From: a virus
Lineage: Duplodnaviria > Heunggongvirae > Uroviricota > Caudoviricetes
DNA length: 64,000 nucleotides
Strand: one strand, 5' to 3'
Virus record (IMG/VR): IMGVR_UViG_3300008262_000042
Span: 803-64,802 of that record
Shown here: positions 15,564 through 34,399 of the stretch, in pieces
Layout: each line of letters opens with the position of its first letter
Position numbering within the stretch: the stretch's first letter is position 1
The notes under the pieces: model-generated
The model's database searches: none
Seen by the model: only the letters and a program-made list of their open reading frames with translations
What the model was told of the DNA's origin: nothing
Position numbers and translations under genes: made by a program

Positions 15564-16010
15564 TTATTTAGTTAATTGATCTTTTACTTGTGATAGCGAT
15601 ATTAAGGTGATTCCAAATGGAAGCAGTACTATTATTATTGCTAAGTATGCTAATAAAGAAATTCCCCATATTATTGTAAGGAATATCCATTGTTCTATAA
15701 CCAATAAAAGTGCGTCTTTAAACTTTATAGATTCTAAGAATCCACTTAATATTAAAATGCAAAATCCTAAAGAGTAACATATGATTAATAAAAGAAATAG
15801 CACATATGTTATCTTAGTCACATAATAAATTAACTTAGCAAAAAAACTACTATTAGACCATAATATGCCTAATAATATTGATAAAGGAAATAATATTAGT
15901 GCAAAAAGTACACAAAATATATTAAGATAAGTTGAAATAAGTACACCGTAATGCACAAAATTAGATTCGAGTAACATAACTTTTATTTTGAATAGATACA
16001 AATATACCAC
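15564..16010 (-). CDS. polytopic membrane protein (148 aa)
   Basis: Almost entirely hydrophobic, 4-5 predicted TM helices. Confidence 0.45.
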   Translation of the reverse strand: MVYLYLFKIKVMLLESNFVHYGVLISTYLNIFCVLFALILFPLSILLGILWSNSSFFAKLIYYVTKITYVLFLLLIICYSLGFCILILSGFLESIKFKDALLLVIEQWIFLTIIWGISLLAYLAIIIVLLPFGITLISLSQVKDQLTK

Positions 16011-17887: not shown

Positions 17888-19063
17888 CTAAATTTTTATG
17901 AATTTACTTGTATAATATTCGTCGTCTAATCTAATTAGATTTTTTTCGTAAGTGTCTAAACTTTTAATAGTTATCTTAAATATATCTAATTCGAATTCTC
18001 CAATATCTCCAGACTCTATGATTATGTCAGCTAATTGTTGTATTATTCTAAAACTATCATTTGTTAGTTTATTTGCATCAAATTCAATTACTATATTATT
18101 TTCACTAATAGGATCATTAAATCCTTTTAATAACACTCTTTTACTTAAATCAAACTTTGTATTGCTTTGTTCATTTTCTATGTATGCTATAGTAATAACT
18201 TGCATTGTATCATCTATGTATATTCTATCGCACCACGGTTCAAGTATTTGTAAAGCTTGTAAAGTGCAGTTAGATACAACAAACGCTATATTATATTTAG
18301 TTGTTGATGATCTATTTCCCCATTTTCTAATATAATTACGATTTGATTTAACTTCTATTAGCTTTGTAGTATTAATATATTCTTCTGAAAATCTAGATGT
18401 TTTACTAACGAAATGATAGCAAATTGCATCTAATATAGTTATACATTCTAATCCTAAAAGTTTTAATCTCATTATTAGATCATCATCTTCACAAAACATA
18501 GGATTAAATAAATTATCCATTCCTTTAATGCTTAGTAATAGATTTCTAGATAAACACATAAAAAATGTTATGCCTTGCTCATATTTATTTTCATATGATT
18601 TTTGAGCTTCTTTTGCAAATTCGTAAAAACTACTAAGATTGAAGGTTTCAAGATCAATTCCAAAATCTCTAATAATCTTACCAGGTCTTTCATGGTCTGA
18701 GAAGATCGGTGGTTCAACAGTTGTATACGATATAACTTTATTTACACTTATGTGTTTTATTAGATTCTCTATAAAATTAGGAGCTAATACTATATCATTA
18801 TGTAAATAAACAACATACTCTTTTGTTGAAATCTCTGCAGCTTTATTAAATGTATCTGAAAATGTTCCATACTCTTTAGAATAATAATATTTTAAATAAG
18901 CGTCATTTAGTGAATCTAACCACTCATGTGTACCATCAGTTGATGCATAACTAACAAAACAAATCTCAATCTTTGGATAAAGTGCTCTTGTTGTTTTATA
19001 AAAATGTTTAGTATAGTCTAGATTATTTTTTAATCCAACTAATAATGAAATATTATTTTTCAT
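17888..19063 (-). CDS. glycosyltransferase, GT2-like (391 aa)
   Basis: N-terminal GT-A-like region with YLHNDIVLAP (DxD-like); first gene of the sugar island. Confidence 0.45.
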   Translation of the reverse strand: MKNNISLLVGLKNNLDYTKHFYKTTRALYPKIEICFVSYASTDGTHEWLDSLNDAYLKYYYSKEYGTFSDTFNKAAEISTKEYVVYLHNDIVLAPNFIENLIKHISVNKVISYTTVEPPIFSDHERPGKIIRDFGIDLETFNLSSFYEFAKEAQKSYENKYEQGITFFMCLSRNLLLSIKGMDNLFNPMFCEDDDLIMRLKLLGLECITILDAICYHFVSKTSRFSEEYINTTKLIEVKSNRNYIRKWGNRSSTTKYNIAFVVSNCTLQALQILEPWCDRIYIDDTMQVITIAYIENEQSNTKFDLSKRVLLKGFNDPISENNIVIEFDANKLTNDSFRIIQQLADIIIESGDIGEFELDIFKITIKSLDTYEKNLIRLDDEYYTSKFIKI

Positions 19064-19934
19064 TCTTAATACTTGTTAATAATTTATTATATAATTCAAT
19101 ATGTGAAATAGCAATCTTCTTACTGTCGCATAGCTCTATAATATTCGCAGGTTGATCTACTTCTATATTAAGAATATTTCCATGAATGTCTATTATATAC
19201 ATATAACCTGGAATTCCACAACACCATCCTTCAAGAGTCGTACGACCTAGTAGAATACCGCCTGTAAAGTGCATCTGCTTAACAATAGTTTCAGTATTCC
19301 ATCGCTTATCTAGATACTTTATATTAGGATGATTAAATTGAAATCTACTTTCACTCATTATATATAAATCCCAATCATTTTTAATACATTCATTAGCTAA
19401 GTGAGATATTGCACTAAATCGAATAGGATCTAATACTTCTCCTACAAATATTCCAGAATATCTATCTAGTTTATTTATATATTCTAAATTAAATCTGCTT
19501 TGATCTATTGGATTATATATCAAAGATACTTTACTCTCAGGTATATTATATTGATCTATTAGCATTTTCTTTATAGGCTCTCTTATAGCGATATAGTGAA
19601 AAATATTAGAGTCGATAATTGGATCTTCTGATCTTATTTCTGAATGTATTATACTTACGAGTGGTGTATTTTTAAAATTACTAAGCATATATGAATTAAC
19701 TTGTGGTTGACTTGCCACAATAATATCATATTTTTCATTAGTATCTATATTTGTTAAATCCAATTGTTTAATACCACTTAACTTTAATCTAGTTTGATCT
19801 GCATTATCAATATTACGTAAAGTAAATAACGTAACTTCATGGCCTAAATAATTTAATTCTCTAACTAATTCATAGTGATATAATTCACTTCCTCCTAAAC
19901 CATTTACATTTAAGCAACCAATTAATATCTTCAT
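19053..19934 (-). CDS. glycosyltransferase, GT4/GT-B N-terminal-like (293 aa)
   Basis: MKILIGCLNVNGLGGSELYHYELVREL matches the GT4 N-terminal GGxE pattern. Confidence 0.45.
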   Translation of the reverse strand: MKILIGCLNVNGLGGSELYHYELVRELNYLGHEVTLFTLRNIDNADQTRLKLSGIKQLDLTNIDTNEKYDIIVASQPQVNSYMLSNFKNTPLVSIIHSEIRSEDPIIDSNIFHYIAIREPIKKMLIDQYNIPESKVSLIYNPIDQSRFNLEYINKLDRYSGIFVGEVLDPIRFSAISHLANECIKNDWDLYIMSESRFQFNHPNIKYLDKRWNTETIVKQMHFTGGILLGRTTLEGWCCGIPGYMYIIDIHGNILNIEVDQPANIIELCDSKKIAISHIELYNKLLTSIKNEK

Positions 19935-20704
19935 AATGTCATTTTTTTATATACCTCTAATATACCTTGTTCTAATCCTATATAATCTATATTGTAAGGT
20001 ATAAGTTTATTTGATATATAGTCATCTATTTTAGCATTTTCAACATTTATATGTACTTTATAATCACTTAAATTATTTATTAAATTTGCTATCTCTAATA
20101 GACTAATAGATCTTGAATAAGCACAATCAACATCCTTAAGTAATAAACTTTGGTCATTTTCTATATAATATTCAATGACTTTAATTAAGTCTTTCATATA
20201 GAAAAAAGTCATTTTTTTATTTTGAATATTCATAGATTGTTTACCAATGTATCTTAGTAAATTTGCTCTTATAAATCTTGTATCTAACTCATACTCATTA
20301 AATACACCGAATATTCTTATATTATAAAAACCATCTTTTTGCAAAATAGAATTAGCTATTATTCTTTTACTTATACCATATGGAGATTCTGGACTATTGA
20401 TTTCTGCGCCTGATGCAAGATTAATAAACATTCCATAATTTTCTTTACATTGTAATAGATTATAGTACATTGTTAAATTATCATCAACTACATTCCAATC
20501 ATCTTTCTTAAGTCTACTTCCACCAACTATTGCACAATGTAATATAATATCAAAATATTGGCCTTTAAAATAATCTAATGTTGATTTAGACGATGTTAGA
20601 TCAAATAGATCTCGTGTATGAGCCACTATTTCATATTTGTCTTTTAACGCTAAATATAAGCTATAGCCTATATAACCTCTTGATCCGGTTATTAGTATTC
20701 GCAT
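19931..20704 (-). CDS. NAD(P)-dependent sugar epimerase/reductase (short-chain, RmlD-like)
   Basis: Rossmann N-terminus MRILITGSRGYIGYSLYLAL; ~257 aa, typical of NDP-sugar reductases/epimerases. Confidence 0.65.
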   Translation of the reverse strand: MRILITGSRGYIGYSLYLALKDKYEIVAHTRDLFDLTSSKSTLDYFKGQYFDIILHCAIVGGSRLKKDDWNVVDDNLTMYYNLLQCKENYGMFINLASGAEINSPESPYGISKRIIANSILQKDGFYNIRIFGVFNEYELDTRFIRANLLRYIGKQSMNIQNKKMTFFYMKDLIKVIEYYIENDQSLLLKDVDCAYSRSISLLEIANLINNLSDYKVHINVENAKIDDYISNKLIPYNIDYIGLEQGILEVYKKMTL

Positions 20705-21241
20705 TTATTTTTCTTTTGAATAATCACCGAACTCAACAATAATAGTACTTTTTCCATCTGTTCTATTTAAAGCATATTCGTAACTTGGAACAATATCTTT
20801 TGGTTCATGTAATTCAATAACTTGTATTGTTTTACACATAGATCTAAACGCATCAGAAAAATTACCCTTATGTTGATCTTGTGGATCTACTGGTCTTTCA
20901 CTACCTACTGCTACTCTTATAATTGCTTTTGGAGTGCATCTACCATCTGACATTAGTGAAAATTTATCTAAATGATTGATTATTTGATCTGTACCCATTA
21001 ATAAAAAATTCCATCTAGGTATTATAGAAACTGGTATATATCCATTTAAAGCTAATCCGTTTACTACACCGCATTGTAAATACTCAGCTACTGGAAATTC
21101 CATTTTTTTATTAGGACTAATATGTTCTAATGTATCATATAATCCGGTTCCAGCATATTCAACTGCTTGTCCTATGAATACAACCTTATCATTTAACGAT
21201 AACATAGTCATCGCTTTTTTTAACTCTTCAAAATATTTCAT
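20705..21241 (-). CDS. transketolase-like TPP enzyme, C-terminal (pyrimidine-binding) subunit
   Basis: 178 aa with the transketolase Pyr-domain pattern (FIGQAVEYAGTGLYDTL...EYLQCGVVNGLALNG); paired with the N-terminal subunit gene immediately upstream. Confidence 0.55.
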   Translation of the reverse strand: MKYFEELKKAMTMLSLNDKVVFIGQAVEYAGTGLYDTLEHISPNKKMEFPVAEYLQCGVVNGLALNGYIPVSIIPRWNFLLMGTDQIINHLDKFSLMSDGRCTPKAIIRVAVGSERPVDPQDQHKGNFSDAFRSMCKTIQVIELHEPKDIVPSYEYALNRTDGKSTIIVEFGDYSKEK

Positions 21242-21253
21242 AATTTGTATAAT

Positions 21254-21904
21254 TTAAAATTGAACTCGTTGACCAGCTCCAGCATGCGGATATTTTTTAT
21301 TTTCATATTCATAATAAACTAAATTTGATTGTTTATATATGCAATTATTTTTTATATCATTTATAAATCGATCTTTATCATCTATAAAATAGGGTGTAGA
21401 TCTTTTCCATACATCATCAGTTGGAGTTAATACAGATAATTTATTTGATTCTACTACGAACGTTATTGGTAGATTGTAGTTTCTAGAATATTTATATGCT
21501 TCATGAAAATTACCTGTCTCAGCAGACATATCACCTATCCAACACCAAACATGGCCGGTACTGCCTCTTAATTTATTTCCCAAAGCTATTCCAGTAGCTA
21601 TTGATGGAATTCCTCCTACAATAGAGCTACATATAAATTTATATTCTGGGAGTGTTTGAATCATGGATTTGCCCTTAATGATTTCATTCTTTAGAAGATC
21701 TGCAGGTATACCTTTTAATAAAGCTTGATAGTGATTTCTCCAAGTACAACATACCCAATCATTAGTAATATCTACACTATTAAATACGCTAACTATCTTT
21801 TCCTCATTTCCACTATATAAATGTATTGGAGCTTTTATTTTTTTATTATTAAATAGACTAGCTATTTCATTTTCAAATTCAATTAATTGTTCTATTGTTA
21901 CCAT
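21254..21904 (-). CDS. transketolase-like TPP enzyme, N-terminal (TPP-binding) subunit
   Basis: GHVWCWIGDMSAETGNFHEAYKYSRNYNLPITFVVESNKLSV resembles the TPP-binding GDG...N region of split transketolases. Confidence 0.55.
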   Translation of the reverse strand: MVTIEQLIEFENEIASLFNNKKIKAPIHLYSGNEEKIVSVFNSVDITNDWVCCTWRNHYQALLKGIPADLLKNEIIKGKSMIQTLPEYKFICSSIVGGIPSIATGIALGNKLRGSTGHVWCWIGDMSAETGNFHEAYKYSRNYNLPITFVVESNKLSVLTPTDDVWKRSTPYFIDDKDRFINDIKNNCIYKQSNLVYYEYENKKYPHAGAGQRVQF

Positions 21905-22854
21905 ATAAATTTGTTATTGTAGTAATTTACTATATTTTTTATTTCAATGTTAAATTTCTTTTTTGGTGTCCATCCTAAAGATCTAAGCTTATTATCATTT
22001 AATGCATATCGTATATCTTGACCTGGTCTACTATATGAAAAGTCTATGTAGTTTAAATATGACTCATGCTCTGGTATTCCGTAAAATTCAATTACTTGCT
22101 TAATAGTGTCTATGTTTTGTTGCTCAAATCCTCCAGATATATTATAAATTTCTCCAATAGTTCCCTTATCAATAATTGTTATAACTGCGTGAGCTGTATC
22201 TTCTGCGTGTAGCCAAGTTCTATAAGGTTCTCCATTATTATGTAAAGGTATTCTTCTCCCTAAATTCAAAAATTTAACAGCTTTAGGTATTAATTTTTCA
22301 ACATATTGCCCTATTCCATAATTATTTGTAGGTCTTAGTATTATATACGGTATATTATGTGTTCTACCCCAAGCCATTATTAGCATATCTGCAGCTGCTT
22401 TTGTAGCTGAATATGGATTTGATGGCTTAAGCATATCTATTTCTATATGCTCTCCTAATCCTATATCTCCATAAACTTCATCTGTACTAAAATGTATCAA
22501 TGTTGGTTTTTTTGAATTCTCAGCTCTATAATTCTTTATTAGCTCTAAAAGATTATGTACACCATCTATATTAGATTTTACAAACTCAGTACTACTTACA
22601 ATACTATTTCCAACATGAGTTTCTGCTGCTGTATTAATAACATAATCACAATCATATAAAAACGTAAGATCATTAATATCACAGTGTACAAAAGAAAAGT
22701 TTTTATATTTTTTAAACTCCTCTAATAGATATTTATTAGCCGCATATGTTATTTTATCTACGCCTTTCACATACCAACCTTTTTCTAAACATATTCTAGT
22801 TATGTAAGATCCTATAAATCCCAAACATCCAGTAATATATACTACTTTTATCAT
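21898..22854 (-). CDS. NDP-sugar 4,6-dehydratase (RmlB-like)
   Basis: N-terminal ITGCLGFIGSYITR (GxxGxxG) and catalytic YSATKAAADMLIMAW (YxxxK); 318 aa is typical of dTDP-glucose 4,6-dehydratases. Confidence 0.75.
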   Translation of the reverse strand: MIKVVYITGCLGFIGSYITRICLEKGWYVKGVDKITYAANKYLLEEFKKYKNFSFVHCDINDLTFLYDCDYVINTAAETHVGNSIVSSTEFVKSNIDGVHNLLELIKNYRAENSKKPTLIHFSTDEVYGDIGLGEHIEIDMLKPSNPYSATKAAADMLIMAWGRTHNIPYIILRPTNNYGIGQYVEKLIPKAVKFLNLGRRIPLHNNGEPYRTWLHAEDTAHAVITIIDKGTIGEIYNISGGFEQQNIDTIKQVIEFYGIPEHESYLNYIDFSYSRPGQDIRYALNDNKLRSLGWTPKKKFNIEIKNIVNYYNNKFIW

Positions 22855-22870
22855 TTTATAAAATATTAAT

Positions 22871-23599
22871 TTATATGTATTGATTAAAATGGGTTTTTAA
22901 TACCTCTTCTCTTTCATAATTAGTAATTCCAGTTAAATGAGCAATAAAACTTTCTTTAGTCCATTCATTTATTATTAAATTTTGTGCATTAGGTCCAGTT
23001 CGAACTGGATCATTTAACCACGTTTTAGTTTTTGTTAAACAAAGAGGAACGCTATTTAAGTATTTATGCTCTAAAATTTTAAAACAATTTACTATATCGT
23101 TATGTTGATGTATTATATTTAGTGTAATTTGTTCAGCCATAATATTATGTAAATAATATTGACTAGTTTCATAAAATTTATTGAATAAATCATTTACATC
23201 TTCTGTACGACGAATAATAAAATTCCCTGTGCTAAATCCATTTTTTCCAGCTGGACCTCCTTCATAGCATAACCAATCATATGAACTATAAAAAGTATGC
23301 TTACTATCTATCATATCATCTATAGTAATATTTGGATTTGTTATTATTGAATCTCCATCTAACCACATAACAACATCATATTGTTGTAATAATGTAAAAC
23401 ACTCCCAAGCTCTAACAAATCCTATATAAGATGTGCCTATATTTTTTTTAGTAAATCCACATTGTTCTATTTCATTAAAATGTCGTTTTATAATTAAGTC
23501 ATAACTATGTTGTTTACAATATTTTAATTTTGAATTTAATGTTAAATCTAAAACATTCCACATTGATTGATCAGCTCCAGTTACTACAACTTTATTCAT
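22871..23599 (-). CDS. putative nucleotide-diphospho-sugar transferase-like protein (242 aa)
   Basis: WLDGDSII DxD-like motif; weak. Confidence 0.3.
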   Translation of the reverse strand: MNKVVVTGADQSMWNVLDLTLNSKLKYCKQHSYDLIIKRHFNEIEQCGFTKKNIGTSYIGFVRAWECFTLLQQYDVVMWLDGDSIITNPNITIDDMIDSKHTFYSSYDWLCYEGGPAGKNGFSTGNFIIRRTEDVNDLFNKFYETSQYYLHNIMAEQITLNIIHQHNDIVNCFKILEHKYLNSVPLCLTKTKTWLNDPVRTGPNAQNLIINEWTKESFIAHLTGITNYEREEVLKTHFNQYI

Positions 23600-25242
23600 A
23601 TTAAATCTTTTAAATATATGTTATATAGTTTATCGTTATTATAAGCATACTTTAAGGCTACTTCAAAATTATGTTTAACATATATTAACATACTTTCATA
23701 GGTTTCTTCATTTAGATTATTAACTATGTTAATTAATTCATCTATTGTATTAAATGTAATAATACCGTTTGTATTAAAAAAATTACCAATATTTGTGCAA
23801 CCTCTATATATTGGGATAGTTCCAGTTAAAAAGCAATCTAATATTTTTTCTGTAAAATAATTATCTGAAATGCCATTCTCAATTGCAATTGAAAATCTAT
23901 AATCTTTTAATGCTTCTATTTTTCCTGTTACTTCATGATACCCAACGCCTCTAATATCTATTGTAGAACCTAGTTCTTTTAAAGAATTAACACACGCAAC
24001 TCTAAATCTATGGCCATCAGTAATAGTTTTATTAGAAGTTATAAAAGATACTAATTTTGTTTTTTCGTAAATATTATATAAACCTTCATCTGATAAAACT
24101 GGATATTCTAAGGAGTGCACATTCTTATTTAAGACAACCTCATATCCTCCATTTCTAAAAACAGCATTAGGTAACTCTAGTAATTGAGGATCATAGGTTA
24201 GTATACGATCAAATTTTTCATAATTTTTAAATACAATTTCATATACGCTATTATGTTCTAATAAGTGCCTAGGTTCGTGTATATCTGCAACTATTTTTCC
24301 TCGTTTAATAGGAATTTCTCCATTAATATACTTGATTATTTCTGTATCTTGAATTAAGGTAACATCAAATTCTCCATTTAATTGATTGTACACATAAGAA
24401 AATAATGTTGGAATCGTATTTCTTTCTCTATATTCTCCAAATACATTTACTAATGGAAGTTTATCTCCTGATAGTCCTTCTTTATATTTTTTTCTATTTC
24501 TAATTTCAACTTCAAACTTATGATTCTCTATTGATTGTCTTTCTTGAGATCTTACTTGGTTTTTTGGTGTCATATTATAAACGCATGTGAAGAAATCAGG
24601 TACGCCTATTTTATTTTTTGGACACATCTCTTGATAGATACAACCCCAAGCGACATCTATAGCATGCCAATAATAATCGCCTGTAATAAGCGATTTTAAA
24701 TCTATCTTATTTATACTTTTAAATAAAAATTTACGGTATGTTCTTAGATGACTCGCTTTAAACATATCTCTCCTATAGAGTTTATGATCATGTACAAAAT
24801 TTTCATGAGGTACACCATATACTGTAGATTCTATAAGTCTATCAGATCCATCATAACATACGAATCTACCATAAGTCATCCAATAATCATAGTCATTATA
24901 TAGTTTATTTAAGTTCGAAAGAGTGTTCTCATCAAAAAACCAATCGTCACCATCTAAATGCACTAATATATCATCATCGCTATCAGACGCAAAATCTATA
25001 TATTCAACATAATTATAAGCTGCTCCTTTATTTTCATCATTTCTTATTAACGTAAATCGACTATCATGCTCTATTATTGATTTTACTTTTTCATACGTGC
25101 CATCAATCGACGCATCATCTATATATAACACTTTAAAATTGTCATATGTTTGATTTATTATACTGGCTAAATTATATTCTACCCAATCTTCGTTATTATA
25201 TGAAGGCGTAATTATTACAAACCTATTTTGTTTTTCCATCAA
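23596..25242 (-). CDS. two-domain glycosyltransferase (GT2 N-terminal domain + second GT-like domain)
   Basis: Classic GT2 N-terminus FVIITPSYNNEDWVEYNLASIINQTYDNFKVLYIDDASIDGT; a long C-terminal extension carries a second transferase-like domain. Confidence 0.6.
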   Translation of the reverse strand: MMEKQNRFVIITPSYNNEDWVEYNLASIINQTYDNFKVLYIDDASIDGTYEKVKSIIEHDSRFTLIRNDENKGAAYNYVEYIDFASDSDDDILVHLDGDDWFFDENTLSNLNKLYNDYDYWMTYGRFVCYDGSDRLIESTVYGVPHENFVHDHKLYRRDMFKASHLRTYRKFLFKSINKIDLKSLITGDYYWHAIDVAWGCIYQEMCPKNKIGVPDFFTCVYNMTPKNQVRSQERQSIENHKFEVEIRNRKKYKEGLSGDKLPLVNVFGEYRERNTIPTLFSYVYNQLNGEFDVTLIQDTEIIKYINGEIPIKRGKIVADIHEPRHLLEHNSVYEIVFKNYEKFDRILTYDPQLLELPNAVFRNGGYEVVLNKNVHSLEYPVLSDEGLYNIYEKTKLVSFITSNKTITDGHRFRVACVNSLKELGSTIDIRGVGYHEVTGKIEALKDYRFSIAIENGISDNYFTEKILDCFLTGTIPIYRGCTNIGNFFNTNGIITFNTIDELINIVNNLNEETYESMLIYVKHNFEVALKYAYNNDKLYNIYLKDLI

Positions 25243-26551
25243 TAAATTTGTTTAATACAACTTCTATATAATCAATCTTTTCTTTATCTATTACTGGAGA
25301 TGTGCCTAGAAAGAATGTATCGGTTGTAACCTTTCTTGCGATTGGATATTTTTCTATTACTTCTTTTGGATCCATCAAACCCGCATACGCTGGTTGCAAC
25401 ATTATATTTCCAGCAAAATACGGTCTTGTTTGTATTTTATTAGATTCAAAAAATTTACAAATATCTGATCTTTTAAATGGAGCACCATCTTTTATAGTAA
25501 TTGGAAAAGCAAACCAATCTACATCTGCGCCTAATTGAGCTTCATGTAAGTGGAAATATTCATTATATTTAGAAAAAACATTATATAGGTTTTTATAGTT
25601 ATTTCTTCTTTTTATACCTATTTCCTCTAATTTTTCCATTTGCACTAATCCAATAGAGGCCTGTAATTCTATGGGTTTTAGATTATACCCTATTTCTTCA
25701 TATACATACTTATGATCAAATAATTCGTCTGGTATACTTGGCACCCAATTATTAAATCTGCAACCACATGCTCCATTTTCTAATAGATTCTGTTTACCAA
25801 TACAAAAACAACCTCTTCCCCATTCTCTAAAACTTCTTATAACTCTTTCTAGTATAGGATCGTCTACTGCTACAAATCCGCCTTCTCCCATAGTTATATG
25901 ATGCGCTGGATAGAAAGAACAACTTGCCATTTTACCGAAAGATCCTAAAGGTTTCCCTTCATAAGTTGAACCAAGTGCATCACAACAATCTTCAAGTAAT
26001 ACTAATTTGTATTTTTCTACAATCTCCATTAACCTTTTCATATTCGGAGGATTACCAAGAACATGCGCAAAAGTTATTATTTTTACATCTGGATTTTCTA
26101 TGCATGCTTGCTCTACTTGATCTAAATCTAAATTAAGTGTATCTAATTCTATGTCTACAAATATTGGCTTAAATCCTACTTGCAATATTGGATTTATAGT
26201 TGTTGGAAATCCAGCTATAGGCGTAATTACTTTGGTGCCTTTAGGTAAATTAGCATATCTTTTTGAAGTCATTGCTAACATCATCAATAGATTTGCGCTA
26301 GATCCACTATTTGTTAGTAAACCAAAATTTTTACCAAGTTTTTTAGGAAATTTTCTTTCAAACTTTGTAGCTTCAGCACCTAATACTAGCCACTCGCTTA
26401 ATAGAGTTTTAACAGCTACTATATACTCTGCTGAATCAAAATATGGACCTGCATATTGAACCCAATCTTCTCCAGCTTTCCATGATTTTTTGCTGTGTTT
26501 ATCTTTTATATATTGATCAACTAGTGATACTATTTCTTTTTCCGTAACCAT
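25223..26551 (-). CDS. DegT/DnrJ/EryC1-family PLP/PMP enzyme, E1 (DdhC/RfbH)-like NDP-4-keto-6-deoxyhexose 3-dehydrase
   Basis: Aspartate-aminotransferase-fold sugar-aminotransferase architecture (GSSANLLMM..., DALGSTYEGKPLGSFG). The position of the PLP lysine reads SFYPAHHITMGEGG (His instead of Lys). A Cys-rich segment GCFCIGKQNLLENGACGCRF follows. Confidence 0.65.
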   Translation of the reverse strand: MVTEKEIVSLVDQYIKDKHSKKSWKAGEDWVQYAGPYFDSAEYIVAVKTLLSEWLVLGAEATKFERKFPKKLGKNFGLLTNSGSSANLLMMLAMTSKRYANLPKGTKVITPIAGFPTTINPILQVGFKPIFVDIELDTLNLDLDQVEQACIENPDVKIITFAHVLGNPPNMKRLMEIVEKYKLVLLEDCCDALGSTYEGKPLGSFGKMASCSFYPAHHITMGEGGFVAVDDPILERVIRSFREWGRGCFCIGKQNLLENGACGCRFNNWVPSIPDELFDHKYVYEEIGYNLKPIELQASIGLVQMEKLEEIGIKRRNNYKNLYNVFSKYNEYFHLHEAQLGADVDWFAFPITIKDGAPFKRSDICKFFESNKIQTRPYFAGNIMLQPAYAGLMDPKEVIEKYPIARKVTTDTFFLGTSPVIDKEKIDYIEVVLNKFIDGKTK

Positions 26552-26558
26552 TTTTTAT

Positions 26559-26807
26559 TTATAAACTATTTAGATCTAAATTAGAGTTATTCATCTTAAT
26601 TATCAAATCCACAAGAGTGCTAATTTGTGTACTCTTTATAACATTATCGCAATTTATATTATTCCAATAATCATTGTATTTATCTCTTGGAATAGCATTC
26701 CAAACTTTACTTATTGGATTATAATGAAATATCCAATTAAATAAACAATCATTTTCTTCTGAATTTGGATATACATTTTCGTAATCCTGATAAGTATTTT
26801 GTTTCAT
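26559..26807 (-). CDS. hypothetical protein (82 aa)
   Basis: Minus-strand ORF. Confidence 0.3.
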   Translation of the reverse strand: MKQNTYQDYENVYPNSEENDCLFNWIFHYNPISKVWNAIPRDKYNDYWNNINCDNVIKSTQISTLVDLIIKMNNSNLDLNSL

Positions 26808-26810
26808 GCT

Positions 26811-27446
26811 TTATATTTTACTGTAAAAATTATTTTGTTGCTCTTGTTTAGCTATGTCTTTATTATGATGTAAACACCAATCTAAACTATCTGTAGGAAA
26901 CTCTGCTATATGAGAATAACCGACTATTCGTTCATGCACTTTTCCTTCCCATTTTATATTAACTTTATTTCTAACTATCCTACTTTGATAATCTGGCCAG
27001 TTAATTAGTCCATCAGGATCGACTCTCCAATTCCATACTTTTATATGCTCTTGTGTTAGTCCTTTAACCGTATTTGCTCTTGGTACCATGAATAGATCAA
27101 CTGGATTGCTATCTAATACTTGATGTAGATAGTACAACATATTCTCAGATAAAGTTTCGTCAGCATCTATGAAGTAAATATAATCTTTTTTACAATTACT
27201 TTTTAAATTATTTTTAAAGTCTGCGAAATTTTTATTTAGCTTATATGTTATATATCTTACTCTACTATCAGAATCAATAAGCTGTTCAATATACTTCTTT
27301 ATCGATAATGCATCGCTATCTGTACATTCATCTTGTTGAATTACAATCTCATCATTTTCTTTTATACAAGGTAACAACTGTTTAATAAGTCTTTTGAATT
27401 CTTTGTATTCGTTACAGCAAGTTATAGCGTAAGATATAGTTATCAT
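26811..27446 (-). CDS. glycosyltransferase family 2-like (211 aa)
   Basis: N-terminal ITISYAITCCNEYKEFKRLIKQL and DEIVIQQDE resemble the GT-A fold. Confidence 0.5.
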   Translation of the reverse strand: MITISYAITCCNEYKEFKRLIKQLLPCIKENDEIVIQQDECTDSDALSIKKYIEQLIDSDSRVRYITYKLNKNFADFKNNLKSNCKKDYIYFIDADETLSENMLYYLHQVLDSNPVDLFMVPRANTVKGLTQEHIKVWNWRVDPDGLINWPDYQSRIVRNKVNIKWEGKVHERIVGYSHIAEFPTDSLDWCLHHNKDIAKQEQQNNFYSKI

Positions 27447-27455
27447 TTTGATGAT

Positions 27456-27938
27456 TTATATTAAATCTAAATATTCTAATGCGCTTACATAATCTGTTCC
27501 AAAATATTGCATACTACTTGGATCTGATTTATGAGATTTGTTTTTAAATACTGGTTTCTTCTTTTCTTGTTTTGTTAATGGTATATTTTTAATTGCACAC
27601 CATTGAGCATCTTCTTTACAAGTTCCATTCATAAAAATAGTGCCTCTATCTAGTATATTAACTACGGTCGGGTACCACACTCTTCCTTCAGAATCTATTT
27701 TCTTAAGATCTTTATATAGTTCTGGCATCTCTGCTTCGAATGTTTCAAAATCAAATTCCCCTTCTCTTGCTAAATCGTTTGATTGATGTCCACAACCTAA
27801 ACACATATATGCATTGTGAAATTCATTCATAGCTATAGAGTAGCAAGCGCCTTTTTCTCCGCATAGAGGACAATCTATTAGGTTGTCTTTTACTTTATCC
27901 ATGTAACACCTCCTTTGTAGTAGTAGTAGTAGTTCCAT
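27456..27938 (-). CDS. zinc-ribbon protein (160 aa)
   Basis: CPLCGEKGAC...CLGCGH Cys pairs. Confidence 0.35.
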   Translation of the reverse strand: MELLLLLQRRCYMDKVKDNLIDCPLCGEKGACYSIAMNEFHNAYMCLGCGHQSNDLAREGEFDFETFEAEMPELYKDLKKIDSEGRVWYPTVVNILDRGTIFMNGTCKEDAQWCAIKNIPLTKQEKKKPVFKNKSHKSDPSSMQYFGTDYVSALEYLDLI

Positions 27939-28152
27939 TTGAATCTGTAGTAGTGTACCAAAAAGGCTGTCCAGGTGGGACAGTCGGAGAATATGGACTA
28001 GTCCATGGATTAACTCCTATAGGAGATGGTGCACAAGTACTGTCTACCTTGTCTACTTCTTTTATTGCCTTTTCAATATCTATTTTCATTTGGCTATCTG
28101 TTTGTGCTGCTAGATAACCTTTTAGCCAATATACAAATTGTTCGTGTGTCAT
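27895..28152 (-). CDS. hypothetical Pro/Thr-rich protein (85 aa)
   Basis: Contains a TTTTTT run encoded by a (gta)n microsatellite; overlaps the downstream ORF by 44 nt. Confidence 0.3.
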   Translation of the reverse strand: MTHEQFVYWLKGYLAAQTDSQMKIDIEKAIKEVDKVDSTCAPSPIGVNPWTSPYSPTVPPGQPFWYTTTDSNGTTTTTTKEVLHG

Positions 28153-28153
28153 G

Positions 28154-29467
28154 TTATTCTACTTTTGTAAGTTTTGGTAATTCTATTTTTTTCAATTTAG
28201 GTAACTGTAATTGAACAGGTTTTGGAAAAGTCGATAAATACTCTGAAAGTTTATCTTTCATTTTTTCCATTGAAAAGTTTGTCTTTGCATAATAGGCTTG
28301 TCTATTTGCTAAATCAGACTTATACTTATCATAGTTGTTATAAACTTGTTCTAAGGCCGTTTGTGCAGCTTTGGTATTAACTTTAAACCATTGCGATTCT
28401 GGAATTAACATATTTTCTGCGACTGCTGATCTATGGATATTTTGTAATTCCCCTGGTAACATTACGCAAAACTCTTCATTTAAGAAATCTATATGTCCTG
28501 ACCAATTTGATGCTATGATAGGTTTTTTACATACTGAGAATTCTAATAGAGGTCGGCCATAACCTTCACCATGACCAAAGTATATCATTGATTTTACTTT
28601 TGGGTGGTTATATAGATTGTTAATCTCTTCTTCAGATATTTCACCATGTAATAGATAGATATTTGGTAAATCTTTAGAGTTGACAGTATTTCTTATTTTA
28701 TCTATCATTTCTAAGAGGTCCTCTCTGTCTATGATGCTATTAGCTACTTTTGTAGTTTTTAATATTAAAGCAGGCTTATTTTTTTTATTTTTAAAAGTCT
28801 CTAAAAATATTTTTATAGTTCCAGATACATTCTTTCTATCTTCTCCAAAATCTCCTTGCAACCAATGACCAACAAATAAATAACAAAAATCTTCTTTAAC
28901 TTGACTTATTGTTTTAACTAATTTGGTATTTGTTAATTCTTTTTCTGGTATATGGAAATACTTATTAAGATCTACACCTTCAAAAAGAACTTCTATAGGT
29001 TTTTCAAGTTTAATCTCTCTTCTAACATTACCGTGATTATCTTTTTCTTGGAATTGAGAACTATTAAATACATTCTTTGCATGCTCTGAAGATACTAAAG
29101 TTAAATTCATTCTATTAACTCCGTCTATCCAAGTTGAATGTGCTATAGTAGTCTCAATACCCGCAGTTACACCAACATTCATTAACTTTCCAATTGGTTG
29201 GAATTCATTAGGTACTGTGATTTGAAACCAATAATCTGGTTGTACTGTTAGTTGATTATTTGGTAAAATAAGATCTTTTAAAAATCCCCATTCTTTTGCA
29301 TGATTTTCTATATATCCCCAACTTGTAGCTCCCCATCTTTGAGAAAGTATTTTTACATCCCAATCATCTTTTTTAAGTTCATATAGAGCCTTTACAAAAT
29401 CTCTAGCTCTTGATCCATATCCACTATTGGTATCGATAGGACAACTAATTACGCATAACGGTTTCAT
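28154..29467 (-). CDS. glycosyltransferase, GT4/GT-B-like (437 aa)
   Basis: C-terminal EGYGRPLLEFSVCKKPIIAS matches the GT4 E-x7-E donor-binding motif. Confidence 0.55.
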   Translation of the reverse strand: MKPLCVISCPIDTNSGYGSRARDFVKALYELKKDDWDVKILSQRWGATSWGYIENHAKEWGFLKDLILPNNQLTVQPDYWFQITVPNEFQPIGKLMNVGVTAGIETTIAHSTWIDGVNRMNLTLVSSEHAKNVFNSSQFQEKDNHGNVRREIKLEKPIEVLFEGVDLNKYFHIPEKELTNTKLVKTISQVKEDFCYLFVGHWLQGDFGEDRKNVSGTIKIFLETFKNKKNKPALILKTTKVANSIIDREDLLEMIDKIRNTVNSKDLPNIYLLHGEISEEEINNLYNHPKVKSMIYFGHGEGYGRPLLEFSVCKKPIIASNWSGHIDFLNEEFCVMLPGELQNIHRSAVAENMLIPESQWFKVNTKAAQTALEQVYNNYDKYKSDLANRQAYYAKTNFSMEKMKDKLSEYLSTFPKPVQLQLPKLKKIELPKLTKVE

Positions 29468-29468
29468 A

Positions 29469-30920
29469 TTAATATACTAATTTGTGTGTTATTTTTTTTC
29501 TTGGTAATTTTTCTATTTTTATGAATTCGAAGTCCTCTTTTGGCTTCCATTCACTAAAAGTTTTTTCTATAGATGATATGACATTTTTACTCATATTTGT
29601 ACTACTCATCATAGACTCATCTGATGTTGCCCAGTCTCTTCCTTTCATGCCTCTATGTATTCTATCTTCTGGAGTTAGGTTATATACATTCTCTATAGCA
29701 TTAGCCACATCTCTAAAATCGCATCTATCATCGAATATGTATGGCGTAGGTATAGAACCAACTATTGACATATTAGTAGGAAATACTGGCATTGCCCATA
29801 CTCCATGTTGTCTATATTTACCAAAATGATTAGAAGGGAAATCTTTTGTAAAATCTACCCAATTTCCTTTTTCATCTTCAAATCTAAGTTGATCTTGCAT
29901 ACCGCCTGTAACATTAGCAATGATCATAGTGCCAGCCATCATAGATTCTGTTAATGATAATCCCCAACCTTCATTAGATGATATTAACGCAGTAACGTCT
30001 GCGATATTATACATGTAATTTAATATATTAGTAGGTACCGCGCCTTGTTCAAATTTTACTTTTTGATATTCAGGATCACATAATAATTCAACTACTGCAT
30101 TAAGATTAGTTCCATTCTCATCCATAGCTTGCGTATGCAATAATAATGTACACTTCTTAGCTTTCTCTTTTCCTATGCTATCACAGAATAGTGCATATGC
30201 TGCGATAAGATCAGAAGTACACTTTCTACGAATATTTCTAGCATTATAGAAAACTACAAACTCTGGTTGATCTTCACCGAATAAGTTCTTTTTATATGAT
30301 TGTAAACCTTCATACTCCTCTTTCATAAATTCATTTATGGGGTAGAATAGTCTATCATTGATACCATGAGGAACGTAAGTAATAACTTTGTCTTTTGCTT
30401 TTTCTCCTAAAACTAATTCGTGGATATTTTTAGTTTGTTTAGATATTGACATTAATAAGTCACATGATTCATAATATGGCTTATTATATAAAGGAGCAGG
30501 ATAGTCATCCCAGATTGATAAGTATAGTATAGGTATTTTTTTTCTAATTTCATTTTCCATTTGAAATAACCACACCCAATATCTAGGATCAGTAAATAAC
30601 ATGATCGCATCGGGTTTTTCAATTTCTAGTATCTGTCTAACAATCTCTGGTGTTCCATATCCATTGCATGGATAAAGCGTCACAGAAGAGTCTGGGATAT
30701 TCATGGTCTTATTCGTATCTTCTGATAGATCAAACCTTTTGCCGTAATCTGGATGATTGATAGCAGCTCCTAAATTAACCCAATTGAATCTGTGAGAAGT
30801 GCCTATAACTATTTCTCTTGACATTGTAGCGATACCACTTGTCATTCGAAGATCGTCACTCATTAGTAAGATCTTCTTTCTTTTTGATTTTTCAATATAA
30901 CCTTCTGGTAAACTTTGCAT
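29469..30920 (-). CDS. glycosyltransferase, GT4/GT-B-like (483 aa)
   Basis: NEGWGLSLTESMMAGTMIIA matches the GT4 E-x7-E motif. Confidence 0.55.
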   Translation of the reverse strand: MQSLPEGYIEKSKRKKILLMSDDLRMTSGIATMSREIVIGTSHRFNWVNLGAAINHPDYGKRFDLSEDTNKTMNIPDSSVTLYPCNGYGTPEIVRQILEIEKPDAIMLFTDPRYWVWLFQMENEIRKKIPILYLSIWDDYPAPLYNKPYYESCDLLMSISKQTKNIHELVLGEKAKDKVITYVPHGINDRLFYPINEFMKEEYEGLQSYKKNLFGEDQPEFVVFYNARNIRRKCTSDLIAAYALFCDSIGKEKAKKCTLLLHTQAMDENGTNLNAVVELLCDPEYQKVKFEQGAVPTNILNYMYNIADVTALISSNEGWGLSLTESMMAGTMIIANVTGGMQDQLRFEDEKGNWVDFTKDFPSNHFGKYRQHGVWAMPVFPTNMSIVGSIPTPYIFDDRCDFRDVANAIENVYNLTPEDRIHRGMKGRDWATSDESMMSSTNMSKNVISSIEKTFSEWKPKEDFEFIKIEKLPRKKITHKLVY

Positions 30921-30926
30921 ATACTT

Positions 30927-31142
30927 TTATTTTCCGATTGCGTTTAGGATCTCACTTCCTGTATAGTGAGTATTATATGTTTGATGTATTTTGTATCTAT
31001 AATCTGCATCTGTCATATATAAGAACATTGATCTATGAACTAAATCTTGAAAATTAATTGATGTTCTTATACTCATAATTTTAAAGTCTTGATATATTTT
31101 ATCAGGCATCTTTACTGTTGTGGTAGAAAATTTTTTTTCCAT
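30927..31142 (-). CDS. hypothetical protein (71 aa)
   Basis: Minus-strand ORF. Confidence 0.3.
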   Translation of the reverse strand: MEKKFSTTTVKMPDKIYQDFKIMSIRTSINFQDLVHRSMFLYMTDADYRYKIHQTYNTHYTGSEILNAIGK

Positions 31143-31181
31143 ATCTTTTATTATAAATATACATAAATATGGAAATACACA

Positions 31182-32087
31182 TTATTTATTTTTATCACAA
31201 AGATCTGGACTTGCATTATATGGACAATACTTGCAAGACGAAGTATTTTTTTCGTATACTCTTTCTGTATTATACTTAGCTTCTGGAGTAAAACACTCTT
31301 TTATAAAGTTCTCAAAACCTTCATAAGCCTCTTTAACCTTTTTCTTTTTATTAGCAGGAACATACTCTTGAATTCTTGAGATTGGGAATTCAGAATTTTC
31401 ATAGATCTTTCTTTTAACAATAAAGAATTTAACATCTATTTTATCTTCAGGTATATTTAATGCTTTTGAATAGAAGTGTTTATATAATAGAATTTGTGTT
31501 AATTTAACTTTGTCCTTTTTTTCTTTTTCTCCCCAACCGCGTGTTGATGTTTTTATATCATATATTGTGTATGTATCAGTATTTTTATGATATAAGATAA
31601 AATCTATATAACCTTGTATTAATACATTAGGACTGTAATCAGTTACTTGTTGTAGTACTGGGATTTCTATACCAACTAATTCTGTATCTTTCTTTGAAAA
31701 ATATTTAGATCTATTCTTTTTAAACCACTCTATAGAGGCTATTCCATCTAATGTAAATTCTTTAAGTTCTTCTCTAGTTGTGTAATGCTCATTATTATTA
31801 CTTTCTAAATCTTTTTTGTAGTTATCTACCATTCGATTCTCAAGATATTCAGATAGATTTATTTTATCAGCCGCAACTATTGATTCATTATACATTACAC
31901 TTAAATAATGTTGTAAAGTTTCGTGTAAAGAAGTACCGTATAAAAGGTGTATTCCTGGTTTGAATACCTTTTTCTTCTTTACATACGCTAAGTACCATGA
32001 GTGAGGACAGCTACTATACATAGAAAATTGACTGTAAGATACACTCTTTTGATATGCGTAATTAATTTCTATTTTACTTTTTTCCAC
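31182..32087 (-). CDS. Cas4/RecB-family PD-(D/E)xK nuclease with Fe-S cysteine motif
   Basis: N-terminal Cys (SSCPHSW); PD-(D/E)xK motifs GYIDFILY and YDIKTS; C-terminal CKYCPYNASPDLC (CxxCx8C) as in Cas4/AddB nuclease domains. Confidence 0.6.
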   Translation of the reverse strand: MEKSKIEINYAYQKSVSYSQFSMYSSCPHSWYLAYVKKKKVFKPGIHLLYGTSLHETLQHYLSVMYNESIVAADKINLSEYLENRMVDNYKKDLESNNNEHYTTREELKEFTLDGIASIEWFKKNRSKYFSKKDTELVGIEIPVLQQVTDYSPNVLIQGYIDFILYHKNTDTYTIYDIKTSTRGWGEKEKKDKVKLTQILLYKHFYSKALNIPEDKIDVKFFIVKRKIYENSEFPISRIQEYVPANKKKKVKEAYEGFENFIKECFTPEAKYNTERVYEKNTSSCKYCPYNASPDLCDKNK

Positions 32088-32823: not shown

Positions 32824-33268
32824 TATTTAATTTTTTAATATGGTTATATAAATCTACTAAATTTCCATCGAATTCATTCATTATAGTTTCTAGTGCTGTT
32901 ACATTTATTTTAAAAATCTTACAGAACTCGCTTTTTAATTTTTTTAGAGTGGTTGTTTCCTCTTTTTCAAAATCTTCTATAAGCTTTCTTCGTCTTTCCA
33001 TAAATAGACATCGAACTTCGTGTTCTTGATCAGCATTTTTACAGAGTTTTAATTTATCTTGCATTAAGTAATATTCATACTCGGCTTGATAATAGTAGTC
33101 TGATACATCAAAATCACCGCGGGCAATTCTTTCATATAATGGGTACTTATTACTTAGCACTTCTCTAGACTTATATCTTCTATGCCAATAGTATTGGTTA
33201 TATGAAACAGGTGTAAGCTTTGATAACTGCTCTTCTAAAAACTCTCTCGATAGTTTTGGTAAACTCAT
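32816..33268 (-). CDS. hypothetical protein (150 aa)
   Basis: Minus-strand ORF. Confidence 0.35.
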   Translation of the reverse strand: MSLPKLSREFLEEQLSKLTPVSYNQYYWHRRYKSREVLSNKYPLYERIARGDFDVSDYYYQAEYEYYLMQDKLKLCKNADQEHEVRCLFMERRRKLIEDFEKEETTTLKKLKSEFCKIFKINVTALETIMNEFDGNLVDLYNHIKKLNNG

Positions 33269-33933: not shown

Positions 33934-34399
33934 TTTTTATGAATTTTTTTAATAAATCTATTCCTGATGTATCTCTATATTGATCTAAATATACAACTCT
34001 TTTTATTCCTGATTGTAATATATATTTCGAGCATTCAATGCATGGAGATAATGTTACATATAATGTTGAATTTTGCACAGCATTTCCTGTCTTTGCAGCT
34101 TTTATCACCGCATTCATTTCAGCATGGAGTACTATACTTTTAGTAATTGTGCTCATTCCAGTTTCATGTAACTCTTCGCAACAATTATCCATTCCAGATG
34201 GAGTACCATTGTAACCTATACTAATAACATTACCATCTTTCTCTATCACTGCGCCTACTTTACTTCTTTTACAATGCGATAATGAAGATACTGCAATGGC
34301 CATAGTCATATATACCATGTCAAGTCTTCTTTGTTTAGAAGACTCCTGTACTTCCAAATCCTCCGGAGCCTCTTTCTGTATTTTTTTCTGGTAATTCAT
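33914..34399 (-). CDS. dCMP deaminase
   Basis: Zinc-binding HAEMNAV and PCIECSK (PCxxC) motifs of the cytidine/dCMP deaminase family. The real start is probably at an internal Met (MVYMTMA), which reduces overlap with the dUTPase. Confidence 0.85.
   Translation of the reverse strand: MNYQKKIQKEAPEDLEVQESSKQRRLDMVYMTMAIAVSSLSHCKRSKVGAVIEKDGNVISIGYNGTPSGMDNCCEELHETGMSTITKSIVLHAEMNAVIKAAKTGNAVQNSTLYVTLSPCIECSKYILQSGIKRVVYLDQYRDTSGIDLLKKFIKIEQYVI

Follow-up and report, generated by a model that had tools for sequence, protein, structure and literature searches.

A conserved glycosyltransferase frame around an exchangeable sugar cassette, with a predicted route to a C4-branched dideoxyhexose, in an Immutovirus-like phage

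Islands of sugar and glycosyltransferase (GT) genes have been known in lytic aquatic myophages since 2005, and as a kind they are not new; they are among the commonest 'auxiliary' gene sets of large aquatic phages. Cyanomyophages P-SSM2 and S-SM2, and the host-recognition cluster of the pelagimyophages, provide examples in which large, hypervariable clusters combine nucleotide-sugar and GT genes (PMC1079782, PMC7029224). Some viruses decorate their own particles: in the Megavirinae, soluble virus-encoded GTs and clade-specific rare-sugar clusters decorate the virions (PMC10117803), and mycobacteriophages have glycosylated capsid and tail-tube proteins (summarised in PMC12619734). Enzymes that build C-branched sugars are also known. 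In yersiniose biosynthesis YerE, a flavoprotein that depends on thiamine pyrophosphate (TPP), adds the two-carbon (C2) branch, and a ketoreductase then gives the hydroxyethyl group; AviB1/AviB2 and Plm8/Plm9, which are pairs resembling the alpha and beta subunits of pyruvate dehydrogenase (PDH) E1, place a pyruvate-derived C2 unit onto C4 of nucleoside diphosphate (NDP)-4-keto-deoxyhexoses (PMC4753412, PMC4802897). Here we analyse an island at positions 17888-30920, on the minus strand, of a 64,000-nt stretch of tailed-phage DNA (the window; IMG/VR record IMGVR_UViG_3300008262_000042, positions 803 to 64,802), in which a polysaccharide/deoxysugar biosynthesis locus had been noticed from the sequence (the original prediction). 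The best explanation of the results is that the island is a phage-owned, cytoplasmic glycan-building operon, composed of a frame and a cassette.

The window is AT-rich (G+C content, or GC, of about 31%), and all of its real-looking genes of at least 100 amino acids (aa) sit on the minus strand, as do all the window features described below. The island consists of 15 consecutive open reading frames (ORFs) that run from 30920 down to 17888 in a single transcription direction, with gaps or overlaps of no more than 20 nt between neighbours. The first GT gene starts at position 30920 and the last GT2 gene stops at 17888, and the predicted boundaries were in this respect exact. Seven GT genes (with eight GT domains) and five sugar-pathway genes were recognized. 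Scans for promoters and terminators returned no more sites than in shuffled sequence. Around the island lie phage hallmark genes for DNA polymerase A, GroEL/GroES, Hsp20, a class II ribonucleotide reductase, DnaB, a 5′-3′ exonuclease, a UvsX-like recombinase, SSB, a baseplate hub and an M15 endolysin; neither an integrase nor a tRNA gene was found in the 64-kb window. Megablast of the island and of window positions 1-25000 against 50,697 phage records gave nothing beyond a 45-bp chance match, and hence relatives were sought at the protein level. The closest cultured relative is the Flavobacterium myophage vB_FspM_immuto (Immutovirus; hereafter immuto), with 53% identity in DNA polymerase and 52% in GroEL.

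IMG/VR was scanned with the first island gene, GT A; at least 562 relatives were confirmed, and the best 80 loci were fetched for comparison. The immuto island proved to be syntenic: a PD-(D/E)XK nuclease gene, a small ORF, two GT genes, a Zn-ribbon gene and a GT2 gene are followed by a cassette and by a terminal GT2 gene. The five frame genes of the window are 39-61% identical to those of immuto, a range that takes in the values for DNA polymerase and GroEL (52-53%), and the left-frame string (nuclease, small ORF, GT A, GT B, Zn-ribbon, GT2) was present in all 80 loci wherever the contig reaches. Beyond the left-frame GT2 nearly every locus differs: about 45 loci yielded 339 cassette ORFs, which formed 139 clusters, including 81 singletons. 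In a Pfam census, the representatives of 136 clusters revealed FkbM-, TylF- and C-methyltransferases, GT2s, dehydratases and epimerases of the short-chain dehydrogenase/reductase (SDR) type, DegT enzymes, hexapeptide acyltransferases, GDP-mannose dehydratase, UDP-galactopyranose mutase, NeuB together with UDP-GlcNAc 2-epimerase, and one acetolactate-synthase-type TPP enzyme. The immuto cassette, which is unrelated to that of the window, carries aminotransferases, a methyltransferase, a mannosyltransferase, an acetyltransferase-like 'pilin glycosylation protein' and an epimerase, and has no E1 dehydrase, no 4,6-dehydratase of the window type and no TPP pair; its gene content points to a different, amino-sugar product.

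These comparisons suggest that the frame is vertically inherited and the cassette exchangeable, and base composition agrees with such a division. The frame has a GC of 0.315 and a GC at third codon positions (GC3) of 0.207, against 0.318 and 0.205 for the rest of the window, and the cassette has a GC of 0.279 and a GC3 of 0.148, with all nine cassette genes under the mean. The codon-usage divergence of the cassette (Jensen-Shannon, JS, 0.019) lies inside the spread seen when blocks of nine genes are drawn at random from the same genome (mean 0.0145, standard deviation 0.005). Recent acquisition from a host, for which a check of GC and codon usage had been proposed, could by this measure apply at most to the central cassette. 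For the whole island it is rejected, since the frame equals the rest of the genome in GC and GC3.

GT A (29469-30920, 483 aa) is a retaining GT4-type enzyme of the GT-B fold class (PF00534, 39.5 bits), 61% identical to immuto gp181, and it was present in all 80 loci fetched. At least 8000 homologues were detected among metagenome proteins, which indicates a very abundant environmental phage group. The original prediction had held that such loci are not typical of myovirus-like phages; this number speaks against it, and P-SSM2 (24 'LPS' genes, PMC1079782), S-SM2, the pelagimyophages (PMC7029224) and immuto all carry islands of this sort. The AlphaFold model of GT A (predicted local distance difference test score, pLDDT, 84) matched GlgM, HepE, MshA and BshA in Foldseek; these are generic GT4 enzymes, and the fold search says nothing on the acceptor. 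GT B (28154-29467, 437 aa) is GT1/GT4-like: it matched the 'glycosyltransferase' family phrog_2170 over its full length (E = 1.6e-17), its PF00534 score (21.4 bits) lies under the cut-off, and it is 54% identical to immuto gp180 and present in 68 loci. The Zn-ribbon protein (27456-27938, 148-160 aa; 39% identity to immuto gp179, 60 loci) carries the motif CPLCG...CLGCG, in which the four cysteines of two CxxC pairs (C11, C14, C34 and the third residue after it, in CLGCG) show little or no variation; a fifth cysteine, C20, hardly varies either. Its AlphaFold model (pLDDT 93) found no fold match in PDB or BFVD besides one orthologue, so to judge by the model it may represent a new fold. The left frame ends with a GT2 of 211 aa (26811-27446; PF00535, 52.6 bits; 45% identity to immuto gp178, 56 loci). 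On the right, the island is closed by a GT2 of 391 aa (17888-19063; PF00535, 46.1 bits), which shares 41% identity with immuto gp169 along its entire length, has an uncharacterised C-terminal domain of ~160 aa, and closes the cassette in 13 loci.

Independent assemblies vouch for the arrangement. The GT A protein is identical letter for letter on contigs of five independent samples (JGI, ENA, NCBI), whose DNA is 99.76-100% identical to the window. Four of the five contigs reach into the island with 99.99-100% nucleotide identity, and in three of them coverage goes on to ~19.5 kb, where the GT4-like gene starts, stopping short of the terminal GT2 (17888-19063). In L082, which is more distantly related (about 75% nucleotide identity), the genes stand in the same order. 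The possibility raised earlier, that the island is a host fragment brought in by misassembly, is ruled out by the five agreeing samples and by the gene order of L082.

Five of the nine cassette genes encode sugar-pathway enzymes. The best-supported assignment in the island is that of E1 (25223-26551, 442 aa), an RfbH-type NDP-4-keto-6-deoxyhexose 3-dehydrase dependent on pyridoxamine 5′-phosphate (PMP) and a [2Fe-2S] cluster. It scored 458.6 bits with the RfbH equivalog model NF011936 (cut-off 423) and could be aligned over its whole length with Yersinia pseudotuberculosis E1 (PDB 3BCX; E = 1e-97). The active-site histidine (SFYPAHHITMGEGG), which is His220 of the Yersinia enzyme and replaces the aminotransferase lysine, is kept, and the four cysteines that hold the cluster are conserved in the alignment with 3BCX; in 13 related loci E1 is 69-86% identical. 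The RmlB-like NDP-glucose 4,6-dehydratase (21898-22854, 318 aa) matched TIGR01181 with E = 2.8e-87; the score of 292.8 bits is under the equivalog cut-off of 365, and the CDP-type model gave only 61 bits. TPP alpha (21254-21904) is a TPP-binding, truncated PDH-E1-alpha-like protein (PF00676, E1_dh, 59.9 bits; TIGR03182, E = 6.8e-23) of 216 aa, compared with about 320-370 aa in the full-length E1 alpha models and structures that it matched. Its TPP/Mg motif, GDM...N, corresponds in the alignment to GDG...NN in the E1 alpha of B. stearothermophilus and does not vary within the family, which in PHROGs is phrog_34187, of 'unknown function'. TPP beta (20705-21241, 178 aa) is a pyrimidine-binding, PDH-E1-beta-like protein whose match to NF006667 (E = 9.6e-12) extends over positions 6-154 of 327 only; the C-terminal domain is therefore absent, and the catalytic glutamate is aligned (PvaE versus PlnE). 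The fifth enzyme is a short extended SDR of 257 aa (19931-20704; PF01370, 48.7 bits; RmlD_sub_bind, 31 bits).

Profile searches with Pfam and NCBIfam models, and with PHROG for GT B, supported the GT and sugar-enzyme assignments of the original prediction. Its E1/DdhC-like 3-dehydrase, RmlB-like 4,6-dehydratase and short SDR are borne out, and its TPP enzyme is indeed split, albeit of the PDH-E1 alpha/beta type and not a transketolase proper. The count of 'at least six' GTs, one of them with two domains, becomes seven GT genes, and to the enzymes in its gene list three overlooked small ORFs (85, 82 and 148-160 aa) have to be added. As judged from these assignments, the island appears to hold enough genes to convert an NDP-hexose into a modified deoxysugar and to transfer it, as had been proposed.

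To define the distribution of the sugar module, we surveyed IMG/VR viral contigs that carry TPP alpha (n = 151, including genomes of 200-450 kb) and fetched 80 loci. TPP alpha has 1952 metagenomic homologues, the best 120 of which are 66-99% identical and constant in length. TPP beta adjoins or follows TPP alpha in 80/80 viral loci, the RmlB-like dehydratase is directly upstream of TPP alpha in 75, and the SDR is downstream of TPP beta in 72. An E1/DegT-family homologue occurs in 65 of the 80, mostly with 52-85% identity to the window E1 and in about 12 cases with 30-34%. Only about 20 of these loci sit in an immuto-like frame. The genes co-occur mostly outside such a frame, and we therefore consider the five genes to be a mobile module of unrelated large phages. 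A different large phage, on a 182-kb contig (L084, 3989-16106), carries next to the E1/dehydratase/TPP/SDR module a second split transketolase-like pair, a C-methyltransferase, a GHMP kinase and a HAD-nucleotidyltransferase fusion; its sugar pathway is apparently self-sufficient and more elaborate.

A strict motif scan did not find the close TPP-module subfamily in 185,579 reference prokaryote genomes (GTDB). A relaxed scan detected TPP homologues with 39-50% identity, mostly in single-amplified genomes (SAGs) or metagenome-assembled genomes (MAGs) of SAR11, SAR202 and gammaproteobacteria, SAR86 included; the idea that the TPP alpha family is confined to phages is rejected on these grounds. 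In the cellular loci TPP beta adjoins alpha in 15 of 21 cases (several end at a contig edge) and E1 is absent. Minimal TPP pairs are carried by cellular loci L173-L193, of which L181 is the one annotated. There, on the Pelagibacter HIMB1412 chromosome (3868-6013), the order is GT2, GT2, SDR, unknown, 4,6-dehydratase, TPP alpha, TPP beta, so that a 4,6-dehydratase paired with a minimal TPP enzyme is a general feature. These loci point to a wide occurrence of C-branched sugars in the surface glycans of marine bacteria.

The gene set, taken together with the published C2-branching chemistry, therefore led us to infer a yersiniose-like route. In our reading, to which we assign a probability of about 0.65, the cassette makes a C4-branched 3,6-dideoxyhexose. 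The RmlB-like enzyme would first turn host NDP-glucose into NDP-4-keto-6-deoxyglucose, from which E1/RfbH would strip the 3-hydroxyl group by means of PMP and [2Fe-2S], with electrons from a host reductase. TPP alpha/beta would then decarboxylate pyruvate and place the two-carbon unit onto the C4 carbonyl, giving a 4-C-acetyl sugar, and the 257-aa SDR, which we propose to be the ketoreductase of the C4 acetyl branch, would reduce the latter to a 4-C-(1-hydroxyethyl) sugar. With this order of steps, which we infer along with the chemistry, the product would be an NDP-activated, yersiniose-like branched octose.

The same genes could also be read in a simpler manner, since E1, a 4,6-dehydratase and a reductase are the canonical set for an ordinary 3,6-dideoxyhexose (abequose, paratose or tyvelose-like). 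The SDR would then act as a 4-ketoreductase, and the TPP pair would do something else, e.g., supply or cleave a different intermediate. The best NCBIfam matches of the SDR are indeed 4-reductases or epimerase-reductases (GDP-fucose synthase, RmlD), all with weak scores, and 13 relatives have E1 without the TPP pair. However, the TPP pair is wedged between dehydratase and SDR in 72-75 of the 80 loci, and the known C2-branching enzymes use a 4-keto sugar as substrate (PMC4802897). The locus L052 of a sister phage (16082-19813) is telling in this respect. It has E1 (RfbH, 456.6 bits), the same type of dehydratase and an SDR of the same family (46% identity) without the split TPP pair, and between dehydratase and SDR it carries a 582-aa acetolactate-synthase-like TPP enzyme, alongside an HpcH/HpaI-aldolase-like ORF and an unrelated 131-aa ORF. 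We interpret this as a non-orthologous displacement of the TPP pair by an enzyme of YerE's family; the aldolase-like protein may supply the 2-oxoacid donor. Hence, we regard an ordinary 3,6-dideoxyhexose as unlikely.

Several points weigh against a C4-branched product. The sugar is predicted from gene content, and not from an observed glycan, glycoprotein or product. By its profile scores the dehydratase is of the dTDP type, whereas the characterised E1 enzymes use CDP-sugars, and the TPP pair is no more than a distant relative of PDH E1, its likeness to AviB1/B2 and Plm8/9 being drawn from their published descriptions. No E3 (AscD/DdhD) reductase was found among the window ORFs scanned, which comprised the long and some of the short ones, many of <120 aa being left out, and no sugar-1-phosphate nucleotidyltransferase was found in the 64-kb window. 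The pathway would therefore depend on host functions, or on genes elsewhere in the ~180-kb genome. A host reductase would have to stand in for E3, as is known for SpnQ.

The cassette begins with a small ORF of 82 aa (26559-26807), which has a homologue only in L003 and no Pfam or PHROG match. A two-domain GT of 548 aa (23596-25242) joins an N-terminal GT2 (PF00535, 80.9 bits) to a C-terminal, fucosyltransferase-like GT10 (PF00852, 43.1 bits), and has homologues in L003, L005, L049, L082 and several TPP-module loci. It is followed by a GT34/DUF273-like GT of 242 aa (22871-23599; PF05637, 35.8 bits with a cut-off of 23; PF03314, 25.2 bits). The last cassette gene encodes a GT4-like GT of 293 aa (19053-19934), in which only the N-terminal domain is recognised (PF13439, 47.6 bits) and which has an orthologue in L082. 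We envisage that the frame GTs would lay down a common core glycan, probably from host nucleotide sugars, on a conserved acceptor, and that the cassette would supply strain-specific outer sugars together with the GTs that add them; in the window the GT2-GT10 fusion, the GT34-like GT and the GT4-like GT would build the outer glycan.

No convincing transmembrane (TM) segment was detected in any island protein, and there was no polytopic membrane protein among the 339 cassette ORFs of the relatives. The Wzx, Wzy, phosphoglycosyl-transferase and ABC-transporter families were absent from the top cassette families of the Pfam census. The sole multi-TM ORF nearby encodes the 148-aa holin-like protein at 15564-16010, outside the island. 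As to what the GTs act on, we tentatively favour a phage-encoded protein or the virion, at somewhat under even odds: virion surface proteins, and/or a Ser/Thr-rich 85-aa protein, would thereby acquire a variable 'glycan coat'. The conservation of the frame across the lineage argues for a conserved acceptor, and among PDB sequences GT A comes closest to a viral enzyme, B736L of chlorovirus NY-2A (best profile match, E = 2.2e-9). The decorated virions of the Megavirinae and mycobacteriophages mentioned above serve as precedents.

The 85-aa protein (27895-28152), rich in Ser, Thr and Pro, belongs to the phrog_28500 family (family N-terminus hidden Markov model, E = 1e-17), which PHROGs lists as of 'unknown function', and it has the top Ser+Thr density among all window ORFs. 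Members of the family share a conserved N-terminal segment of ~40 aa, a variable low-complexity middle of 23-115 aa rich in Ser, Thr, Gly, Asn and Pro, and a conserved K-x-x-L-(N/H)-D tail. A phrog_28500 protein is encoded at the same position, between GT B and the Zn-ribbon gene and thus between frame GTs, in about 22 of 60 loci (e.g., L008, 7879-8214; L017, 3190-3681). It resembles a mucin-type acceptor or linker and is, speculatively, a candidate glycan acceptor; with about 22 of 60 loci it cannot be the sole one.

Three points weigh against a phage-protein acceptor. The Ser/Thr-rich protein is missing from most loci with the frame. The island lies between replication genes and a putative lysis region, away from the structural genes. 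Finally, O-antigen pathways also use soluble GT2/GT4 enzymes on undecaprenyl-linked acceptors, so that GTs without TM segments do not alone exclude a host lipid acceptor.

The last point leads to host-envelope remodelling. The phage GTs would act at the inner face of the membrane on undecaprenyl-linked O-antigen, capsule or general O-glycosylation intermediates, and the initiating transferase, flippase and ligase of the host would export the glycan; the altered receptors would keep out superinfecting phages or prevent progeny from adsorbing again. Comparable islands of lytic cyanomyophages (PMC1079782) and pelagimyophages (PMC7029224) have been interpreted in this way. O-antigen synthesis classically involves GT2/GT4 enzymes and 3,6-dideoxyhexose pathways, the TPP pair has its nearest cellular relatives in SAR11/SAR202 glycan loci with GT2 genes, and a receptor-competition trait would be expected to be hypervariable. 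However, neither the island nor the 339 cassette ORFs contain an initiating phosphoglycosyl transferase, a flippase, a polymerase, a ligase or an ABC exporter, and the specific export machinery of each host would have to accept exotic, ever-changing sugars. The frame GTs are conserved in a lineage whose hosts presumably differ in surface glycans, and the close TPP-module subfamily is not found in the prokaryote genomes scanned, the 39-50% matches having other gene contexts. Such a role is also without experimental support in any lytic aquatic phage. We consider remodelling of the host envelope possible, but doubtful.

The DNA of the phage was considered as well, because a hydroxymethylase had been noticed nearby and sugar hypermodification of DNA proposed. 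The GTs would put sugars, including the rare deoxysugar, on hydroxymethylated pyrimidines and so evade restriction. A thymidylate-synthase homologue (33265-33933, 222 aa) does lie 2.3 kb upstream of the island. It is without the last ~50 residues of ThyA, and Asn177 of the E. coli enzyme is replaced in it by Asp, which we take to be a dCMP-specificity signature (ThyA N177D and T4 gp42 literature); it is hence probably a dCMP hydroxymethylase or methylase, and not a thymidylate synthase. A dCMP deaminase gene and a dUTPase-family gene adjoin it (33914-34399 and 34335-34772), and a PD-(D/E)XK nuclease gene directly precedes the island. The phage may, from these genes, have modified cytosine in its DNA, whereas immuto replaces G with 7-deazaguanine. 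For phage GTs, hypermodification of DNA with a variety of glycans has been described (Pyle et al. 2024, as cited in PMC12619734). At the start of the window, a 125-aa ORF at 423-800 is 77% identical over 53 aa to part of a 423-aa 'thymidylate synthase' gene of immuto (L001 9251-9409); the immuto gene may be a fusion or a mis-annotation.

The hydroxymethylase is thus plausible, but a gene of this type is near the island in only 9 of the 80 loci (the closest relatives, all with Asp), while the frame is universal. GT A is of the GT4 type, and the T4 alpha- and beta-glucosyltransferases are not among its top 50 structural matches. To our knowledge, seven GTs and a multi-step sugar pathway exceed any characterised DNA-glycosylation system. 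Immuto, which has all five frame orthologues, also speaks against DNA. Liquid chromatography with ultraviolet and mass-spectrometric detection (LC-UV-MS) of its DNA gave only dA, dC, dT and 7-formamidomethyl-7-deazaguanine (fdPreQ1), and therefore neither a hydroxymethyl-pyrimidine acceptor nor a glycosylated nucleoside (PMC10516641). These published data disfavour DNA as the acceptor, which we consider improbable. The probability left over by a phage protein, the host envelope and DNA falls to something else.

A further proposal goes beyond the phage-encoded acceptor, and we would ourselves bet against its being right in full: the island may be a phage 'serotype locus', in which conserved GTs prime a protein of the phage, be it a virion component, the mucin-like 85-aa protein or both, and a freely exchanged cassette caps the glycan with strain-specific rare sugars, here a branched octose whose maker, a minimal PDH-E1-like carboligase, is so far known mainly from phages. 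If this is true, virion surface glycans would diversify much like bacterial O-antigens.

In the literature searched we found no description of a lineage-wide frame-plus-cassette design, of a phage E1/dehydratase/minimal-TPP/SDR module or its predicted branched dideoxyhexose, or of a hypervariable Ser/Thr-rich protein inside the frame. The existence of a cultured relative with the same frame, together with the compact enzyme set, makes the role of phage sugar islands testable, and the thousands of environmental frame-plus-cassette variants are a natural experiment in glycan diversification. The five-gene module, with its unusually small two-subunit predicted TPP carboligase, is of interest to enzymology and glycoengineering. 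Metagenome annotations name the TPP subunits 'pyruvate dehydrogenase E1', and they could therefore be miscounted as auxiliary metabolic genes of central carbon metabolism.

The flanks of the island can be described as follows. On its left boundary, at 30927-32087, are the PD-(D/E)XK nuclease gene (301 aa; PF12705, 68.3 bits) and a 71-aa ORF, which were found in 81 and 32 loci, respectively, always directly upstream of GT A. We take them as conserved neighbours that mark the edge of the island. The genes for GroEL, GroES and Hsp20 (37668-39590 and 39845-40315) adjoin DNA polymerase A, as they do in immuto. On the other side, the multi-TM holin-like ORF (148 aa, 15564-16010) is 1.9 kb downstream of the island and the M15 peptidase endolysin gene (9754-10335) 7.6 kb downstream; in L082, GH19, holin and lysozyme genes likewise come after the island. 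The island may therefore abut the lysis module.

How does the locus compare with known systems? The islands of cyanomyophages and pelagimyophages resemble it in that no export machinery has been reported and no function proven (PMC1079782, PMC7029224), and S-SM2 and P-TIM68 carry a fused relative of the TPP pair with 35-37% identity. Those phages are T4-like, whereas the window phage is Immutovirus-like with DNA polymerase A and GroEL/ES; their islands are among tail-fibre genes, and that of the window between replication genes and a putative lysis region. The conserved GT frame on both sides of the cassette and the E1/dehydratase/TPP/SDR module set the window island apart from them. With O-antigen and capsule loci (Wzx/Wzy or ABC) the island shares clustered nucleotide-sugar genes and GTs, but an initiating transferase of the WbaP/WecA type, a flippase and polymerase or an ABC exporter, and a chain-length regulator were not found in it. 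In the virion glycosylation systems of mycobacteriophages, chloroviruses and Megavirinae fibrils, soluble virus GTs work without lipid carriers, and the window GTs are also without membrane components. Virion glycans are established there, whereas in the window phage group they are a prediction; the sugar chemistry differs, and the island is not beside structural genes.

At the level of the predicted sugar, AviB1/AviB2 of avilamycin and Plm8/Plm9 of paulomycin biosynthesis are, like the window pair, two-subunit PDH-E1-like TPP enzymes within deoxysugar gene sets. They belong to actinomycete antibiotic pathways, and compared with those enzymes the phage subunits, at 216 and 178 aa, are greatly reduced in length, the beta subunit being without the C-terminal domain. 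The Yersinia pathway to yersiniose A/B (DdhB, E1/E3, YerE, YerF) uses a CDP-type dehydratase, whereas that of the window is dTDP-type by profile score, and neither an E3 nor a nucleotidyltransferase was found in the window set, which is phage-encoded. Yersinia relies on the flavoprotein YerE where the window has a split, truncated PDH-E1-like pair, and L052 has an enzyme like those of the YerE family. The window E1 is a true orthologue by the NCBI equivalog model, and the route predicted for the window would follow the same logic as in Yersinia: 4,6-dehydration, 3-deoxygenation, addition of a C2 unit at C4, and ketoreduction.

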